This document shows, one piece after another, positions 21,472-28,257 of a stretch of 64,000 nucleotides of DNA. The notes under the pieces were generated by a model. That model ran no database searches. It was given only the letters and a program-made list of their open reading frames with translations, and was not told the origin of the DNA. This DNA comes from Microcoleus sp. Lineage in GTDB: Bacteria > Cyanobacteriota > Cyanobacteriia > Cyanobacteriales > Microcoleaceae. The number at the start of each line of letters is the position of its first letter. Position 1 is the stretch's first letter. The position numbers were made by a program, and so were the translations under genes. The DNA lies in the NCBI GenBank assembly GCA_042408215.1, contig JAYFMW010000014.1:1-64000 (forward strand), in the 5' to 3' direction.

Positions 21472-22578
21472 TTACCGTCCAACATTTTCTGGCGACTTTG
21501 GTGCGATGACTTCGATTTCCACCGGAGCAACGCCGCTGCTCATCATTCCGAGCACGCTGGCGGCGCCTAAGGACAAGTCAATTAGCCGATCGCCCACGTA
21601 GGGGCCGCGGTCATTGATGCGGACGACGACCGATCGGCCGTTATCTAAATTTCTCACCAATACTAGAGTTCCGAAAGGCAAGAAGCGGTGGGCTGCTGTC
21701 AAAGCATATTGGTTAAACGGTTCGCCACTGGCGCTGAGGTTGCCGTCAAAGCCGGGGCCGTACCAGGAAGCCCAGCCACTGATCCGCACTTGCATCGGGC
21801 CAAAAGAGAGCGCAGGCGGTTCTGCTTGTGGCTGACCTGCGACTGCTTCCAGGGGTGGGGCGTTGCCCAGGAGTCGGCGCAGCCGATTGGTTACTTGCAG
21901 GGCGTCTAGGCGGTCGTCGCTGGTGGTGTCGGGGAGAATTGTTTTGGCGTTGATGTCTACCAAGTCCTCGCCGTTGGCCTGGATCATGTAGCGATCGCCT
22001 GTTTCCCACTTGACGGTAATCCTGTTTGGGTCAACGTTGTTGCGCGCCAACTGATTGAGTCTTGCTGCTAAGCTTGATGCCCGCCACACTGGGTCGGTTT
22101 CTTGGTCGCGGTCATAGCTGGACTTTTTCCGGTCTGAGGGATTTTCTCCCTCGCCAGCTATTTTCAACTCACTGCTGGCTTTTGATGCGTTGGCATCAGT
22201 TTTTCCTTCTTGAGTGTTTGTTGACCGACTCCCGTCTAGAAACGTGATCACTGGAATGTTCCGCACGTAGACTGTCGCTGCTTGTCGCCCTTCCCATGCG
22301 TGGGACTGAATTTTGGCGATCGAGTCGGATTCAATGTCAGCCCTTGCTTGGTACTGATATTGTCCGACTTTTTGTGCTTCGACCCTAGTCGCGTTTAACT
22401 GCGGGGACGTTTGACTGGAAACTACTTGCTTTTTGCCCTGATAGTTTTGTCCGGCGGCAGCAGTGGCTTCTGCGTGACAAGATGATGCCGTTCCTACCAC
22501 AGGAACTAAGAGGACAGCTAGTAGACCACCAACAAATTTTTCCTTCATATGTCCATTTTTGTGAAGAGCCATTGCCAA
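21472..22578 (-). CDS. rlpA: Septal ring lytic transglycosylase RlpA family protein
   Basis: GWASWYGPGF, TAAHR and RINDRGP. Confidence 0.9.
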   Translation of the reverse strand: MAMALHKNGHMKEKFVGGLLAVLLVPVVGTASSCHAEATAAAGQNYQGKKQVVSSQTSPQLNATRVEAQKVGQYQYQARADIESDSIAKIQSHAWEGRQAATVYVRNIPVITFLDGSRSTNTQEGKTDANASKASSELKIAGEGENPSDRKKSSYDRDQETDPVWRASSLAARLNQLARNNVDPNRITVKWETGDRYMIQANGEDLVDINAKTILPDTTSDDRLDALQVTNRLRRLLGNAPPLEAVAGQPQAEPPALSFGPMQVRISGWASWYGPGFDGNLSASGEPFNQYALTAAHRFLPFGTLVLVRNLDNGRSVVVRINDRGPYVGDRLIDLSLGAASVLGMMSSGVAPVEIEVIAPKSPENVGR

Positions 22579-23047
22579 CCGAGGTTAGGGGATTGGCCAG
22601 CTTGGTGATCTGCAAAAGTGAGAATTTTCACCTCTGCCCTTCGCTATTCCCCTTCGAGTCGAAACAAACAGTCCGGGTGCATTTTTGCTGTAATGCTTCA
22701 GCAAATAAAAACCTTGCGTGAAACTTCCCTGACACTTGACAACTCATACTCGATCGGCAATTTGTGTTTTGTTAACGAACTGCCACAGACTACCATAAAC
22801 TTTTGAGCTTGGGGATCGGTAAGACCACGGAATTTGCCAAAAATCCATCGCATCTTCACAGTTCTCGCTCTCAGAAAATGCTGTAATGGCAGTGCTTGCA
22901 GAGTTTTTAGTAAGGGCAAAAATTTTACAAAACTTCACAAAACTTTACAAAAACAGAGAGTATTTTGCGATCAAATCTCAAATCTCAAATCTCAAATCGC
23001 TAGACTTGGCAATAAACTAAACACTAGAAATCGACGCAGGCGGATTT

Positions 23048-24070
23048 ATGGACTATCGAACAGCAGGTGTGGATGTTGAGGCGGGCAGAGCTTTTGTCGA
23101 TCGCATCGGCAGTATGGTCAAAAGCACCCATCGATCGGGTGTTTTAGGCGGATTCGGCGGGTTTAGTGGCTTTTTTAGCGTCCCAGAGGGTTTAAAAGAG
23201 CCGATTATGGTTTCGGGCACTGATGGGGTTGGCACTAAGTTGAAATTGGCCCACGAGCTCGATCGCCACGATACGGTAGGTATCGACTTGGTGGCGATGT
23301 GCGTTAACGATGTGCTCACATCCGGGGCGGAACCGCTATTTTTTCTCGATTATTTGGCGACGGGAAAGTTAAATCCTGAACAATTAGCTGCTGTGGTTGC
23401 TGGCATCGTTGATGGTTGCAAGCAAGCTGGCTGTGCTTTGTTGGGCGGGGAAACAGCCGAGATGCCCGGTTTTTACCAGTCGGGAGAGTACGATTTGGCT
23501 GGGTTTTGTGTGGGTATTGTCGAAAAGAGCAAATTGTTGGACGGTTCGCGGGTTAAAGTCGGAGATGTGGCGATCGGCCTGGCTAGTTCGGGGGTCCACA
23601 GCAACGGTTTTAGTTTGGTCAGAAAAATTGCGGGCGATTTGGGTTTTGACTGGCATTCCCAACCGGAAAAGTTAGGCGGCAAAAGTTTAGGAGAAGTCCT
23701 ATTAACTCCCACTACAATTTATGTGCAGCCAGTCCTCGCAGCAATTAAGAGTGGTTTGGATATTCACGGCATGGCCCACATTACTGGCGGCGGTTTGCCG
23801 GAGAATTTGCCTCGCTGTTTAGCAGCCAATCAATCTGTGAAAATTGATCCTCATAGTTGGCCAAAGTTGCCGATTTTTGAGTGGATTGCTGAGACTGGCG
23901 ATGTGGCTACCGCAGATATGTTCCATACTTTTAATATGGGCATTGGTTTTGTCCTGTTGGTCGATCGCACCGCAGTCGATCGCACAATTCAATGGTTTCA
24001 ATCTCAGGATATTCCTGCTTTTGAAATTGGCGCAGTAATTGACGGTAAAGGAGAATTACTGATGGGGTAG
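23048..24070 (+). CDS. purM: Phosphoribosylformylglycinamidine cyclo-ligase
   Basis: [23 protein letters not shown] and FNMGIG. Confidence 0.97.
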
Positions 24071-24071
24071 A

Positions 24072-24938
24072 TTAATTTTAATTGATTGAATTTAAAAAAA
24101 ATCGCCGTTTTTTTTAGGGTAAAAGGCTTGACTTTCGCCGCTGAATCAATTACAATCTAATAATGGGAGTGGCGGCAATTTTAAAACTTTTGCCACCACT
24201 CCCATTATCTAAAATATACCACAAGAATCCCAGCAAAGTCAATAGGTAATCCCTCTTTTTTAAGGCGGAGCAGTTATAGATGTTGAAGGAATCAGGAATC
24301 AGGAATCAGCAATTCCGGGCAATGGTTTCAGCGATTAAGAACGTCCTCACCGCCGCTCAGGTTGCTATATTGACGGTAACGGACAATTAGTCATGGACTC
24401 ACTTAATTTTAATTGATTGAATTAAAAAAAATCGCCGTTTTTTTTAGGGTAAAAGGCTTGACTTTCGCCGCTCAATCAAGTACAATCTGATAATGGGAGT
24501 GGTGGCAATTTTAAAACTTTTGCCCGCACTCCCATTATCTAAAATATACCACAAGAATCCCAGCAAAGTCAATAGGTAATCCCTCTTTTTTAAGGCGGAG
24601 CAGTTATAGATGTTGAAGGAATCAGGAATCAGGAATCAGCAATTCCGGGCAATGGTTTCAGCGATTAAGAACGTCCTCACCGCCGCTCAGGTTGCTATAT
24701 TGACGGTAACGGACAATTAGTCATGAACTCACTTAATTTTAATTGATTGAATTAAAAAAAATCGCCGTTTTTTTTAGGGTTAAAGGCTTGACTTTCGCCG
24801 CTCAATCAAGTACAATCTAATAATGGGAGTGGTGGCAATTTTAAAACTTTTGCCTACACTCCCATTATCTAAAATATACCATGACAAGTCCAGCAAAGTC
24901 AATAGGTAATCCCTCTTTTTTAAGGCGAATTTTTTTTA
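24072..24938. repeat. 330-bp-period tandem repeat: three palindromic ~190-bp cores and two identical ~135-bp linkers
   Basis: ATGGGAGTG starts at 24163, 24493 and 24823. Confidence 0.9.
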
Positions 24939-25078
24939 ACAAGATTGTCAGAAAGGGCGATCGATATAATAAGTAAGTAGGGTGCGTCGCTCCCAGATTT
25001 TCGATGATAATTACAGATGGTTGATGGCGACGCACCCTACAGTATCTACAATCAAGATAACCTAAAGGAGGCAATACT

Positions 25079-25720
25079 ATGTTGACAAGCGATCTCAATG
25101 CTCTACTTGACCAACAAGCACTCCAACGCCAAGATCCCGAATGCCGCTATATTACCGATCGCGTTAACTGGGAGCAATATGAAACCTTACTCACCAGAAA
25201 TGGGGATACTTCGGCATATCGAGTCACGTATTTAGATGGAGTCTTAGAAATTATGTCACCTTCCCGTCGCCATGAAAACAGAAAAACGCGGATTGGAGAT
25301 CTTTTAGTCATTTACTTTTTAGAAGCAGATATCGACTATTTTCCCTTTGGTTCTACAACTCTGCGACGAGAGGAGAAAAGTGGCGGGACCGAACCCGATG
25401 AAGCTTACTGCATTGGTACAGACAAAGAATTTCCCGATTTGGCAATTGAGGTTGTTGTTACCAGTGGTGGCCTGAATAAACTGGAAGTTTACAGAAGGTT
25501 AAATGTTAAAGAGGTTTGGTTTTGGCAAAATGAACGTTTTAGCCTCTACTACCTCCGAGAAGAAATCCCAGTTCAATTTGTCCAAACCTGCGGTTATCAG
25601 CAAATCGATCGCAGCGAGATTCTCCCTAATTTAGATATAGAATTGCTGGCGGAATATGTCCGATATCCGAATTCGCTCGCAGCAGTTAAGGAATTTCGAC
25701 AACGACTGATTTCTGGTTAA
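25079..25720 (+). CDS. Uma2 family (PDDEXK) endonuclease
   Basis: LEIMSPS..HE, EPDE and PDLAIEV. Confidence 0.9.
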   Translation: MLTSDLNALLDQQALQRQDPECRYITDRVNWEQYETLLTRNGDTSAYRVTYLDGVLEIMSPSRRHENRKTRIGDLLVIYFLEADIDYFPFGSTTLRREEKSGGTEPDEAYCIGTDKEFPDLAIEVVVTSGGLNKLEVYRRLNVKEVWFWQNERFSLYYLREEIPVQFVQTCGYQQIDRSEILPNLDIELLAEYVRYPNSLAAVKEFRQRLISG

Positions 25721-25771
25721 AACCAGATTCGAAACCTGAAAATTGAATTTTAGCTAAAAGGAGATGAAATA

Positions 25772-26146
25772 ATGTTAGATTTGTATGATTTGCTAGGAAA
25801 AATTAAGCAAAGATCGTCTTTATACTTGGGAAAGCGATCGCTTAGTCATCTCCATGTTTTCTTAGATGGCTATACCTTTGCCCGCCGTCAACTTGGCATC
25901 CCTCTAACAGAACAAGAAATGAATTTTGAGGATTTTCAAGAATGGATAGAGAATCGATTTAACCAAGCAGATACTCAATCTTGGAGTCGGATTATTCTTT
26001 TTTATTCTGAGGATGAAGCAGATGCACTGAAGCGCTTTTTTGATTTATTTGAAGAATTATTCAATAGTGAACAGTTACCAAAAATTGATGAAACAAATAA
26101 TTCCGAAATGTCTGATGAGTTGAGTGTTGTAGGTGTAAATGGTTGA
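25772..26146 (+). CDS. Hypothetical protein
   Basis: 124-aa ORF with AGGAG SD, directly after Uma2. Confidence 0.75.
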   Translation: MLDLYDLLGKIKQRSSLYLGKRSLSHLHVFLDGYTFARRQLGIPLTEQEMNFEDFQEWIENRFNQADTQSWSRIILFYSEDEADALKRFFDLFEELFNSEQLPKIDETNNSEMSDELSVVGVNG

Positions 26147-26268
26147 GTCTCATATTGATAGGGATGGGAGATGGGCGATCGCACTTTGGGATTCGGCATG
26201 GGAAAAGCGATCGCACTTTTTGTTGTTTGAGGAAAAGGGCGATCGCACTTTCGGAAAAATGAAAAATG

Positions 26269-28257
26269 CTACATCTGAGCAACTTGTCTCATCAATTCAT
26301 TCAATTGCCCATCAATAGCATTTAATTGATCTGTGAGTGATGCTAACTCCCGAATCTTTTGGTCAACATTAGCTTGACCTTTTTGCTTTTCAGCCAGAAT
26401 AGACTTAACTTGAGTCCGAACACTTTGAATCTCGTTACCAAGTCCTCCATCTACACCGTCCTCAATTTCTTTAATCTTAGCTGCAACAGCATTAGCTACT
26501 TCATCGGGCTGGTTTGATGCTTGAAATTGAATTTTGTATTCTTTCCCTACTTGTTGTTTAACCTTATCGTTAATCCCGTTAACCTTAATGAAGGCTTGTA
26601 GTGAACCACTAGCAAATATTGCTGGAATTAATATCCAAGGGTTGAGTCCAACGAGCAAGTAAGTTACGCCAACGGTAGCAAGTTGAGGAATCAGACTTTT
26701 GAGCATTTCCTTGTAGCCAAATAACCCTCCTATCGCGGCAGAACCATAGTCCATCAATACAAAACCAGCAATCCCAGAAAGAATGCGATTAATCGGAGAA
26801 ATTTTAGTATCTTCTACCGGTACATCTAGTTTTGATACCTTAGTTCCAGAAATCTCAACACGCACTCGATCTAAATCGGAGAAAAAGTTGCCTGCTTTGT
26901 CTTCTAATTCCTTGAATAGATCATCCAATCGACTTCCTAAAAAGGGCTGTAACTCCTGACGTTGCCATTGGGTAAACTCTTTCTCTACTTTGCTGGAAAG
27001 ATATTGAGTCACCTCTTCAACAACTCTTTTAGCCGCCTTTTCCATGTTGACGATATCTTTTGAGAATAGTTTTACACCTTCTTGGATCGTATATTCCTTC
27101 ACCCAGCCATCGATTTTGTCACCGACTTGATTGAGAAGCTGGCGAGATTTTCCTCTAACTAGCTCTTTAATATCTTCACGGAAGTTCGATATCCGTCTCA
27201 CTATGCTTTCACGCTCCTTCTCCAATAGTCGCAGTGACTCCTGAGCATCAGCATAGCGTTTTTCCAAAGTTTGCAAATCAGTTCTCAGCATTGATTCTCG
27301 CTGAGGAATAATTTTTCGTGACTCCTCAATAGACATTCGGAAAACTTTTTCTGATCGGACAATTTTCACCCGCCCTCGTTCCTTAGCTAAAAATGTTGCT
27401 AGTGCTTGCTCGACAAGTTCTATACCAGAATTTTTAATTCGGTTCACATCCTGATCTAAATAACCTTCCAAAGCATCTACAGCCGTGATAAAAAAGATCC
27501 CCTGGGTTCCTTGTTTGGTTAGATTTCCAAACTGAGATAAGCCATGTTGTCTGACTCGCTCTTGCTCTTCTTTTTTCCGAATATCATTGAAGCGATTGCA
27601 GATAAAAAAGATATCCTCGTGACCGCAATTACTCAACAGTTCGATCATCTTCTGTTCAGAAATTGACGGGCCGAGTTGTTCGCAAGACAGAACAAAAAGC
27701 ACGGCATCGACTCTTGACAAGTAATCCACCGTGACTTGCTGGCGTACTTCGTTTTCATTCAACCCTGGAGAATCAATAATTTCTACACCATTGCGACAGA
27801 GTTCTAATGGCCAGAATAATTCTACCTTTTCATAAGGACTTTCTTCTCCTTCTTTTTTGCCAGAGTTTTTAATAACAACATATTCCTCAATTTTGTCCGC
27901 AGGTATTTCCTGGGGTGATCGCGGTGAACCAGAAGCAGACCTTTTGTAATATAGAATGGCTTTTGATTTATCACCCCATTTAACTTCATTAATAATTGCA
28001 GTAGTTGGAGTTGAATAGGCAGGTAACACTTCTTGTCGCAATAAAGCATTAATAAAAGTGCTTTTTCCCCGGTTGAACTCGCCTATCACAAGCACTTTGA
28101 AGTTATCTGTCAAGATCCGGTCTTGCAATTGGCGAATAGTAGATTCTGTTTCTTTCATATTTAGAGAATGCAACACTTCTATTTGCTGCTTCACTAAAAC
28201 AGCTAGGGCATTACGTTTTTGTTGAAATAACTGATATTGTCTATCGTTAGAGTTCAT
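26269..28257 (-). CDS. Bacterial dynamin-like GTPase
   Basis: G1 GEFNRGKST, G2 PTT, G3 DSPG, G4 NRFND, helical stalk and C-terminal hydrophobic paddle. Confidence 0.9.
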   Translation of the reverse strand: MNSNDRQYQLFQQKRNALAVLVKQQIEVLHSLNMKETESTIRQLQDRILTDNFKVLVIGEFNRGKSTFINALLRQEVLPAYSTPTTAIINEVKWGDKSKAILYYKRSASGSPRSPQEIPADKIEEYVVIKNSGKKEGEESPYEKVELFWPLELCRNGVEIIDSPGLNENEVRQQVTVDYLSRVDAVLFVLSCEQLGPSISEQKMIELLSNCGHEDIFFICNRFNDIRKKEEQERVRQHGLSQFGNLTKQGTQGIFFITAVDALEGYLDQDVNRIKNSGIELVEQALATFLAKERGRVKIVRSEKVFRMSIEESRKIIPQRESMLRTDLQTLEKRYADAQESLRLLEKERESIVRRISNFREDIKELVRGKSRQLLNQVGDKIDGWVKEYTIQEGVKLFSKDIVNMEKAAKRVVEEVTQYLSSKVEKEFTQWQRQELQPFLGSRLDDLFKELEDKAGNFFSDLDRVRVEISGTKVSKLDVPVEDTKISPINRILSGIAGFVLMDYGSAAIGGLFGYKEMLKSLIPQLATVGVTYLLVGLNPWILIPAIFASGSLQAFIKVNGINDKVKQQVGKEYKIQFQASNQPDEVANAVAAKIKEIEDGVDGGLGNEIQSVRTQVKSILAEKQKGQANVDQKIRELASLTDQLNAIDGQLNELMRQVAQM

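Follow-up and report, generated by a model that had tools for sequence, protein, structure and literature searches.

Immediately downstream of purM in this Microcoleus genome, a short stretch of DNA is repeated three times, and each repeat carries two promoter-like sequences that face each other across a strong hairpin. The question raised by this locus is what such an arrangement makes. A preliminary description of the sequence had read it as a type I toxin-antitoxin-like locus, in which a small peptide is paired with an antisense RNA, and had offered a sense/antisense module or a promoter-carrying palindromic unit as its fallback. The window that we analyzed is the whole stretch of 64,000 nucleotides, and all coordinates below are positions within it. 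The purM gene, which encodes phosphoribosylformylglycinamidine cyclo-ligase, was identified as an open reading frame at 23048..24070 on the plus strand, and its product matches the NCBIfam family TIGR00878 with 456.7 bits (cut-off 236).

The triplication of a unit at 24072..24938 is borne out by two kinds of repeat search. Tandem Repeats Finder reports an array at 24038..24927 with a period of 330, 2.7 copies, 95% matches and a score of 1603, and a direct-repeat finder returns 3 copies with a spacing of 330; these searches divide the array into units at 24038-24368 and 24369-24698 and a partial unit at 24699-24927. Each 330-nt unit is a composite, made up of a copy of the purM 3' end, a core of approximately 200 nt, and a repeat of a second family that is unrelated to the core. 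Unit 1 begins with the final 33 nt of the real purM gene (24038-24070), and diverged copies of these 33 nt recur on the plus strand at 24369..24401 and 24699..24731 (direct-repeat family D2). Compared over the 86-nt repeat D2, the real gene end shares 77% identity with its copies in units 2 and 3, although the remainder of the 330-nt unit is 98% identical between copies. The three cores lie on the plus strand at 24072..24270, 24403..24600 and 24733..24927. They are matched by a covariance model of the core, R1, which was built from 77 distinct copies, at 24111-24258 (154.5 bits), 24441-24588 (150.5 bits) and 24771-24918 (152.4 bits), respectively. Members of the second repeat family, which we refer to as the tail, were located by genome BLAST and alignment at 24275..24369 and again at 24605..24699, both on the plus strand. 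The tail has the form TATAG...heptamer repeats...GGTTTCAGCGATTAAGAACGTCC...GGTTGCTATA, with TATAG and GCTATA as its ends, and genome BLAST gave 44 hits for this family.

Contigs from three public runs, belonging to three different studies, bridge the tandem junction from the right arm of one core through the tail and into the next left arm (X1, 24230-24453; X2, 24195-24513; X3, 24238-24436), indicating that the junction is no assembly artefact. A contig from one public run has the single-copy form, in which the sequence from 24071 to 24733 is skipped. Taken together, the bridging contigs and the single-copy contig indicate that the array is real and that it is polymorphic in nature. Contigs from RNA runs cover purM, the tail and the downstream gene and break at every hairpin, as is expected of a near-palindrome, which should break k-mer assembly; since these contigs are assembled, their starts, ends and strand are not readable from them, and they may include DNA. 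The right flank of core copy 3 is the ancestral single-copy flank found in relatives. The alignment from purM into the core is unbroken in 43 of the 78 other species, and those of the 43 that we examined have a single core whose right flank is that of copy 3 here, indicating that the triplication arose by recent local tandem amplification of an ancestral single copy behind purM. The close relative G005 has a second unit as well.

A consensus scan found both of the promoters that had been proposed for the core, and found them in all three copies. The predicted plus-strand promoter, TTGACT-17-TACAAT, lies at 24128-24156, 24458-24486 and 24788-24816, with a predicted start near 24163. The predicted minus-strand promoter, TTGACT-18-TATATT with an upstream TG, lies at 24213-24242, 24543-24572 and 24873-24902, with a predicted start near 24206. 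Each of the six sites matches the consensus at 10 of 12 positions, and the scan of the region returned 7 sites versus 3.4 ± 2.0 in shuffled sequences. Upstream of the plus promoter, on the same strand, is an A8-TCGCCG-T8-AGGGTAAAAGGC tract (24094..24127, 24424-24457 and 24754-24787). The column identity of this tract at orthologous loci is 0.87 and 0.79, and the tract resembles an UP element. We also considered this tract as a terminator and rejected it by reasoning, because it would form only A-U pairs; we read it instead as a putative upstream promoter element.

Both predicted promoters are features of the family as a whole. We accepted a promoter if each hexamer matched the consensus at 4 or more of its 6 positions and the two hexamers together at 9 or more of 12; by this rule, the plus promoter is present in 74 and the minus promoter in 77 of 80 distinct family copies. 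The -10 variants (TACAAT, TATAAT, TATTAT, TATCAT; TATATT, TATTAT) retain T1, A2 and T6. Of the 80 copies, 76 have a 17-nt spacer in the plus promoter, and all have a spacer of 17 or 18 nt in the minus promoter. Likewise, the distance from the -10 hexamer to the motif ATAATGG is 3 nt in 72/80 copies on the plus strand and 4 nt in 76/80 on the minus strand, which places both predicted starts inside the base of the hairpin stem, approximately 44 bp apart. Thus, both arms carry the hexamers of a predicted sigma-70-type promoter at a spacing of 16-18 nt, and these hexamers are more conserved than their surroundings. The stem-base sequence ATAATGGGA was also considered as a general promoter feature and was set aside: the pattern ATAATGG[GA]A has 121 occurrences versus approximately 112 expected, and only 40 of the 121 are in inverted pairs, these being the family members.

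Between the two promoters lies a central hairpin with 19-bp arms, ATAATGGGAGTGGCGGCAA and TTGCCACCACTCCCATTAT, and an 11-nt A/T loop (24160..24208, and again 24490-24538 and 24820-24868). In copy 1 the arms, at 24160-24178 and 24190-24208, are 95% complementary. Each core had been described as one long imperfect palindrome. Mirror symmetry is confined to the central hairpin, the -35 boxes and part of the -10 regions; the palindrome is not continuous, since the promoter spacers are unrelated to each other. The hairpin-containing RNAs fold with predicted energies of -35.9 kcal/mol for the plus strand (z -5.2) and -47.8 kcal/mol for the minus strand (z -6.7), and no fold as good was obtained in 200 shuffles of either strand. 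A second stem suggested by the fold, AATTGATT/AATCAATT, was dropped, as by eye it is absent in other copies.

The covariation check that had been proposed gave a divided answer for the stem. Across the alignment, 88.2% of the 1462 cells of the 19-pair stem are paired, versus 35-57% when the partners are slid; changes on both sides are seen in 9 of the 19 pairs, and the observed covariation score was reached by 0 of 500 shuffles, although such shuffle controls overstate the significance because the aligned sequences are related. Remote copies have a perfect stem of other sequence, such as GGGAATATTGACA/TGTCAATATTCCC in L081 and GGGAGTGCTGACA/TGTCAGCACTCCC in L278, and one copy has a compensating deletion of one base pair, affecting both sides. 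On the other hand, RNAalifold without an imposed structure keeps only the 9 invariant lower pairs, with a covariation term of 0.06. Pairs of the upper stem are unpaired in 6 to 42 of the 77 copies, and the predicted folding energy of some array members is no better than -8 to -10 kcal/mol. The 9-nt base of the stem, ATAATGGGA/TCCCATTAT, is essentially invariant and shows no covariation. Judged from these alignments, the stem is clearly maintained, which does not in itself prove selection at the level of RNA. Compensating changes in a DNA palindrome can also come from template switching, without selection on an RNA, and homogenization of the palindrome at the DNA level may be a source of pair-keeping changes. 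Folding energy favors the plus-strand RNA in 37 and the minus-strand RNA in 35 of 72 usable hairpins, and at orthologous loci the plus-strand RNA in 18 versus the minus-strand RNA in 13 of 31; since neither RNA is systematically more stable, no functional strand can be named.

The purM-adjacent locus allows the constraint on these parts to be compared with that on the neighboring gene. We measured mean column identity at 33 distinct orthologous loci. The first, second and third codon positions of purM have identities of 0.93, 0.95 and 0.74. In the core, the identity is 1.00 for the -35 and 0.85 for the -10 hexamer of the plus promoter, 0.91 for the 5' arm and 0.85 for the 3' arm of the stem, and 0.95 for the -10 and 0.91 for the -35 hexamer of the minus promoter. 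The plus and minus spacers have identities of 0.58 and 0.69, the loop 0.65, and the 3 nt between the plus -10 hexamer and the stem 0.51. Change is thus slower in the hexamers and stem arms than at synonymous sites, and as fast or faster in the parts between them. This pattern clearly points to purifying selection on both predicted promoters and on the hairpin.

These observations lead us to the explanation that we prefer, in which our confidence is about even: the core would be a self-contained, non-coding convergent transcription module that yields complementary hairpin RNAs and blocks read-through. From the sequence pattern we infer that both promoters fire. The two predicted sigma-70-type promoters point toward each other, both have an A/T-rich tract upstream, and their predicted starts are approximately 44 bp apart. 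Both would transcribe one palindrome, so that each RNA would begin with the same stable stem-loop and have its 5' end engaged in the lowest pairs of the stem; the two RNAs would be complementary over their full length. Because the GC-rich stem is flanked by AUAAU and AUUAU, it is probably a terminator in both directions. If so, the products of the module would be two hairpin RNAs of approximately 50 nt, and the module would stop read-through from neighbors such as purM. The fallback reading of the preliminary description, a sense/antisense module or promoter-carrying palindromic unit, agrees with what we find, namely conserved predicted promoters and a conserved hairpin in a multi-copy family.

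The proposed role in termination has a parallel in the bidirectional intrinsic terminator, which like the core has a GC-rich stem with an A-rich 5' side and a U-rich 3' side and lies between genes. The core differs in its only partly U tail, its 11-nt loop, and its two predicted inward-facing promoters, which are absent from ordinary terminators. A terminator scan of the region returned 0 sites, which is explained by the 11-nt loop and by a tail that falls short of 5 U in 8 (the tails after the stem, AUUAUCUA and AUUAUUAG, have 4 U in 8). In the four core-less species that were inspected, a different hairpin with a U-rich tail directly follows purM, which fits the core acting as a terminator where it is present.

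The toxin-antitoxin reading holds that the plus transcript is a leaderless mRNA for a small hydrophobic peptide, repressed by a fully complementary antisense RNA. The open reading frames on which it was built are there. The 28-codon micro-ORF at 24163..24249 recurs at 24493-24579 and 24823-24909 on the plus strand in the ORF list, although we judge it to be no gene, and the minus-strand frame from the ATG at 24205 was reproduced as an ORF of 19 aa, MGVVAKVLKLPPLPLLDCN. The repeated copies and tandem arrays also recall the LDR and SIB repeats of E. coli. In the LDR (ldr/rdl) and SIB/QUAD (ibs/sib) systems, repeated intergenic units of a few hundred bases, some of them in tandem, each hold a small ORF and an overlapping antisense RNA. 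The core, too, is a repeated intergenic unit of a few hundred bases that is sometimes tandem; however, the toxin ORF is conserved in those systems, whereas the ORF is the least conserved feature of the core.

The preliminary description had itself named homologues that freely break the 28-codon frame as the observation that would count against its peptide, and across 81 distinct family copies the frame is freely broken. It is kept in 29 of them, and lengths elsewhere range from 3 to 78 aa: 37 aa in 13 copies, 16 aa in 10, 17 aa in 8, 18 aa in 4 and 3-9 aa in 5, with twelve further plus-ORF lengths of 15 to 78 aa among the 81. The 37-aa reading results from a one-base change in the spacer. The ten 16-aa copies have a perfect hairpin with a loop one base longer and are read in another frame, the eight copies that end at 17 aa do so because a -10 variant creates TAA, and the five that end after 3-9 aa retain the promoters and the hairpin. 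The minus-strand ORF is 19 aa long in 18/81 copies and 5 aa long in 26/81. Over the 29 plus-strand columns that are otherwise unconstrained, the identities at the three codon positions are 0.68, 0.76 and 0.59, which is not clearly periodic, and the minus-strand values are flat.

The properties of the peptide point both ways. Its N-terminal half is hydrophobic and its tail basic, and the 29 + 13 of 81 copies that keep a frame of 28 or 37 aa are similar over their first 19 residues; truncated copies lose the basic tail. By eye, the hydrophobic run GVVAILKLLPPLPL has 14 residues, with one lysine and three prolines, and because of its prolines and lysines the peptide has no helix of transmembrane length. 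The start codon is buried in the 19-bp stem, at about -30 kcal/mol, no Shine-Dalgarno sequence was seen at the micro-ORF, and the three peptides matched 0 families in Pfam and PADLOC (E <= 10) and in NCBIfam (E <= 0.01). The common MGVV start is accounted for by the hairpin, since ATGGGAGTGGTG is the stem. We judge the micro-ORFs to be by-products of the stem sequence, on the evidence of these alignments. More generally, a palindromic stem placed after a promoter yields a plausible hydrophobic micro-ORF on both strands, and this should serve as a warning in the annotation of such loci.

Among known systems, the closest architecture is that of par(pAD1)/Fst. Its convergent promoters produce transcripts that share a bidirectional stem-loop, and the antitoxin, RNA II, is only about 40 nt long (PMC7472228). 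Type I toxins have a hydrophobic transmembrane helix, and those of the Fst/Ldr group also have a charged C-terminus (PMC7472228). The core likewise has predicted convergent promoters sharing a stem-loop, the facing one conserved, and both of its RNAs would contain complementary hairpins. However, the toxin part is missing: the core has nothing but the hairpin between its promoters, leaving no room for par-type direct repeats (DRa/DRb), and it has no conserved toxin ORF, Shine-Dalgarno sequence, transmembrane helix or charged-tail signature. Since most copies break the frame while the promoters and hairpin stay, the toxin-antitoxin reading is unsupported, and we regard it as very improbable indeed.

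The distribution of the core speaks to its nature as a repeat. Model R1 has matches in 78 of 78 genomes of the genus and in 96 of 144 genomes of the family, this genome counted, and in 27 of 144 sampled genomes of the order outside the genus, several of which have 8-18 matches; the check among relatives that had been called for thus found the family widely. Core holders include Microcoleus, M. vaginatus among them, and Tychonema bourrellyi, with remote copies in Floridaenema, a Geitlerinema MAG and an Oscillatoriaceae MAG. A pattern search of the genome collection gave 116 loci, 50 of which have a real core, all of them cyanobacterial. The remaining 66 lie in unrelated phyla and match by chance; one of them, in a Bacteroidales MAG, was a borderline hit to the profile. 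An Rfam search of positions 22000-27000 of the window at E <= 1 returned nothing in the cores and two chance-level hits outside them, SNORA4 and mir-290. As had been suspected, the element is undescribed in the literature searched and in Rfam, and as far as these show it is a widely conserved cyanobacterial family, universal in its genus and present in several other families.

The family is usually multi-copy, with 5 to about 25 copies per genome, and often forms tandem arrays that carry a piece of a neighboring gene. This genome has 26 core places (47 R1 matches, counting both strands), or 21 if contig C23, which repeats two arrays of contig C28 with identical scores, is an assembly duplicate. 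Twenty-two of the 26 lie within 1.4 kb of another copy in the same orientation, in groups with periods of 330, 357, 426, 533, 644 and 1386 nt. Relative L177 has an array of four 160-nt units, and arrays occur in other genera, too.

Such clustering, and the recurrence of tandem arrays in several genera, would be expected if the core were a selfish non-autonomous repeat, MITE-like or of the "mobile promoter" kind, that spreads for its own sake, uses its promoters and hairpin for propagation or has them tolerated, and serves no host function. The loci also vary by species, the hemA-adjacent copy being continuous in only 7 of 78 other species, and copies of the purM type are bounded by an inverted A8-TCGCC...GGCGA-T8; elsewhere, the copies have GGGCCGAGCAG at their ends and lack the T-run. 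Against such a repeat, no target-site duplication was seen by eye in the family alignment, and no parent element with a transposase was seen: all genome BLAST and model hits are core-sized, and, apart from a duplicated gene end, the arrays contain no ORF of at least 100 aa. Beyond the -35 boxes the two arms are unrelated, and 43 of 78 species have kept the copy behind purM, with its hexamers and stem more conserved than synonymous sites. The phage and plasmid collections contained no core match, and 0 of 27 pattern hits in viral contigs survived the profile check. The comparison of filled and empty hemA loci is uninformative on the ends of the element, because core-less species have the spacer wholly replaced by heptamer repeats.

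A match to a known MITE family, which the preliminary description had foreseen as evidence against its peptide module, was not found. Promoter-bearing MITEs, such as the Correia elements of Neisseria, are short palindromic repeats that lie between genes and have promoter boxes and RNA hairpins; Correia elements have terminal inverted repeats and target-site duplications and reach hundreds of copies. The core is likewise a short intergenic repeat with promoter boxes and a hairpin, but no duplication or parent element was found for it, it has 5 to about 25 copies, and its symmetry is greatest at the centre, not at the ends. We consider a purely selfish repeat unlikely, if still worth entertaining. 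It is compatible with a convergent transcription module, and the two explanations are not exclusive.

The same predicted promoters could instead be the whole point of the core. As a portable promoter cassette, it would use the hairpin as a 5' stabilizer, the plus promoter would drive the gene to the right, and the minus promoter would make an antisense RNA to the gene on the left, here purM. Both promoters are near consensus and conserved, no canonical U-tract follows the stem, and at the purM and hemA loci the next downstream gene is on the strand of the plus promoter, all of which would suit a cassette. At the 10 loci examined here, however, the orientation relative to the neighbors is inconsistent (convergent, divergent and co-directional), and where units are packed closely, as in the 4 x 160-nt array of L177, a read-through transcript would only enter the next module. 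A promoter cassette thus appears improbable.

A further alternative places the function in the DNA itself and makes the RNA irrelevant: the core could form a cruciform or bind a protein, or its face-to-face polymerases could act as a roadblock, a recombination hot spot or an R-loop/priming site. The essentially invariant stem base, which does not covary, and the lack of a strand bias in wobble pairs are in keeping with this, as are predicted starts whose 44-bp separation would let two open complexes abut. The arrays with pieces of neighboring genes also point to local errors of replication or recombination at these sites. Yet no protein gene associated with the copies was found in their vicinity, the A/T loop is free to vary, and conservation of the stem base could just as well reflect its being transcribed first from both promoters. 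We regard action at the DNA level as distinctly improbable. Selfish spread, a promoter cassette and a DNA-level element all overlap in part with the reading as a convergent module.

Returning to the convergent non-coding module that we favor, one further step can be taken only tentatively, as something rather unlikely: the core may represent a new class of cyanobacterial element, a minimal face-to-face promoter pair without a toxin, whose sole product would be two fully complementary hairpin RNAs, their 5'-triphosphate ends paired. Such an element would amount to a constitutive supply of dsRNA or to a site of polymerase collision, and its 5 to about 25 copies would be kept, and multiplied into arrays, because dosage matters, as it would for a sponge of RNase III or of an RNA-binding protein, a transcription insulator that works without Rho, or a trigger or decoy in phage defence. 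To our knowledge, these organisms lack the terminator factor Rho. If the promoters fire as predicted, the loci would be among the strongest transcription units of the cell, and they would be either a source of unusual RNA species or built-in insulators in bacteria without Rho. The regulatory RNAs of Microcoleus and other filamentous cyanobacteria, which build soil crusts and toxic river mats, are barely known.

Tandem arrays of short transcribed units have precedents in cyanobacteria. The NsiR1 array of the Nostocales consists of short tandem units, each with a promoter and a hairpin-ended small RNA. The core shares the tandem short units with promoter and hairpin, whereas each NsiR1 unit has a single regulated promoter and no facing one, and the core has no Rfam match (E <= 1). 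In Trichodesmium erythraeum IMS101, a tandem array of seven repeats makes the most abundant non-coding RNA (PMC4143802). Its units measure 736-973 bp and its transcript is approximately 260 nt (PMC4143802). Compared by description only, that locus resembles ours in belonging to a filamentous cyanobacterium and in having units with a gene fragment, as with the purM 3' end here; it differs in that the unit here is 330 nt rather than 736-973 bp, and convergent promoters are not described there. Tandem amplification with gene pieces mirrors this unexplained and most highly expressed Trichodesmium RNA locus and offers a route to study how such arrays originate. In the present genome, three arrays have a piece of a neighboring gene in every unit. 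In the array studied here this piece is the 3' end of purM; at C28:255536 it comes from the 3' end of the upstream gene, and at C3:466342 from the 5' end of an oxidoreductase gene.

Within units 2 and 3 of the array, purM 3'-end fragments are found at window 24369-24401 and 24699-24731, and approximately 8 positions of these fragments do not match the true end of the gene, while the rest of the surrounding unit is 98% identical. The fragments also resemble the purM ends of other species. Taken together, the differences and this likeness hint that the extra units of the array were not simply duplicated, but were acquired when the locus recombined with DNA of foreign or older origin.

The tail of the unit belongs to a second repeat family, whose members in the window lie at 24275-24369 and 24605-24699. 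Using BLAST, we observed 44 matches to this family across the genome. Its ends read TATAGC...GCTATA, and between them are a conserved block of approximately 50 nt, GGTTTCAGC.ATTAA.AACGTCC...GGTTGCTATA, and a run of GAAGGAA-type heptamers that varies in extent. At several other loci, the 3' end of the family (GGTTGCTATAG-like) lies directly upstream of a core, and the tail and core families may accordingly be linked to each other.

The array at G000:C3:464400-466264, in the genome of the window, contains five to six diverged cores with a period of approximately 357 nt, and every unit carries a decayed 5'-end copy of the adjacent oxidoreductase-like gene (starting MTYDYDLFVIGAGSGG). A-C mismatches break the plus-strand hairpin of these cores, and the same positions are predicted to form G-U pairs in the minus-strand RNA. 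In a relative's genome, positions 595-1235 of locus L177 (from G006:C6) contain a head-to-tail series of four units, each only 160 nt long, which retain both promoters but have a much weakened hairpin, predicted at -8 to -10 kcal/mol. Two core arrays of contig C28 of G000 recur in reverse orientation on C23 (32 kb) with identical model scores; C23 must have arisen either as a duplicate during assembly or through a large duplication of recent date. An additional, degenerate core-family member at G000:C10:153620 (minus strand) has TTGACT-17-TATGCT followed by ATAATGGGA, has a partner arm that is decayed, and was not picked up by the covariance model at E <= 0.01.

Downstream of the array, a perfect 14-bp inverted repeat (GTAGGGTGCGTCGC / GCGACGCACCCTAC, window 24977-24990 / 25027-25040) enclosing a loop of 36 nt is found a short distance upstream of a 213-aa ORF at 25079-25720, for which we found no NCBIfam family at E <= 0.01. 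A weak SNORA4 match on the inverted repeat is due to chance.

We also observed repeats in the corresponding spacers of species that lack the core there. Downstream of purM (L294-L297, from genomes G127, G128, G076 and G010), these consist of a 9-bp hairpin, GAAGCAATC/GATTGCTTC, with a U-rich tail, together with further repeat hairpins. The core-less spacers downstream of hemA (L242-L247) are filled with species-specific heptamer microsatellites of the TTAGTCA or TTATTGG type.
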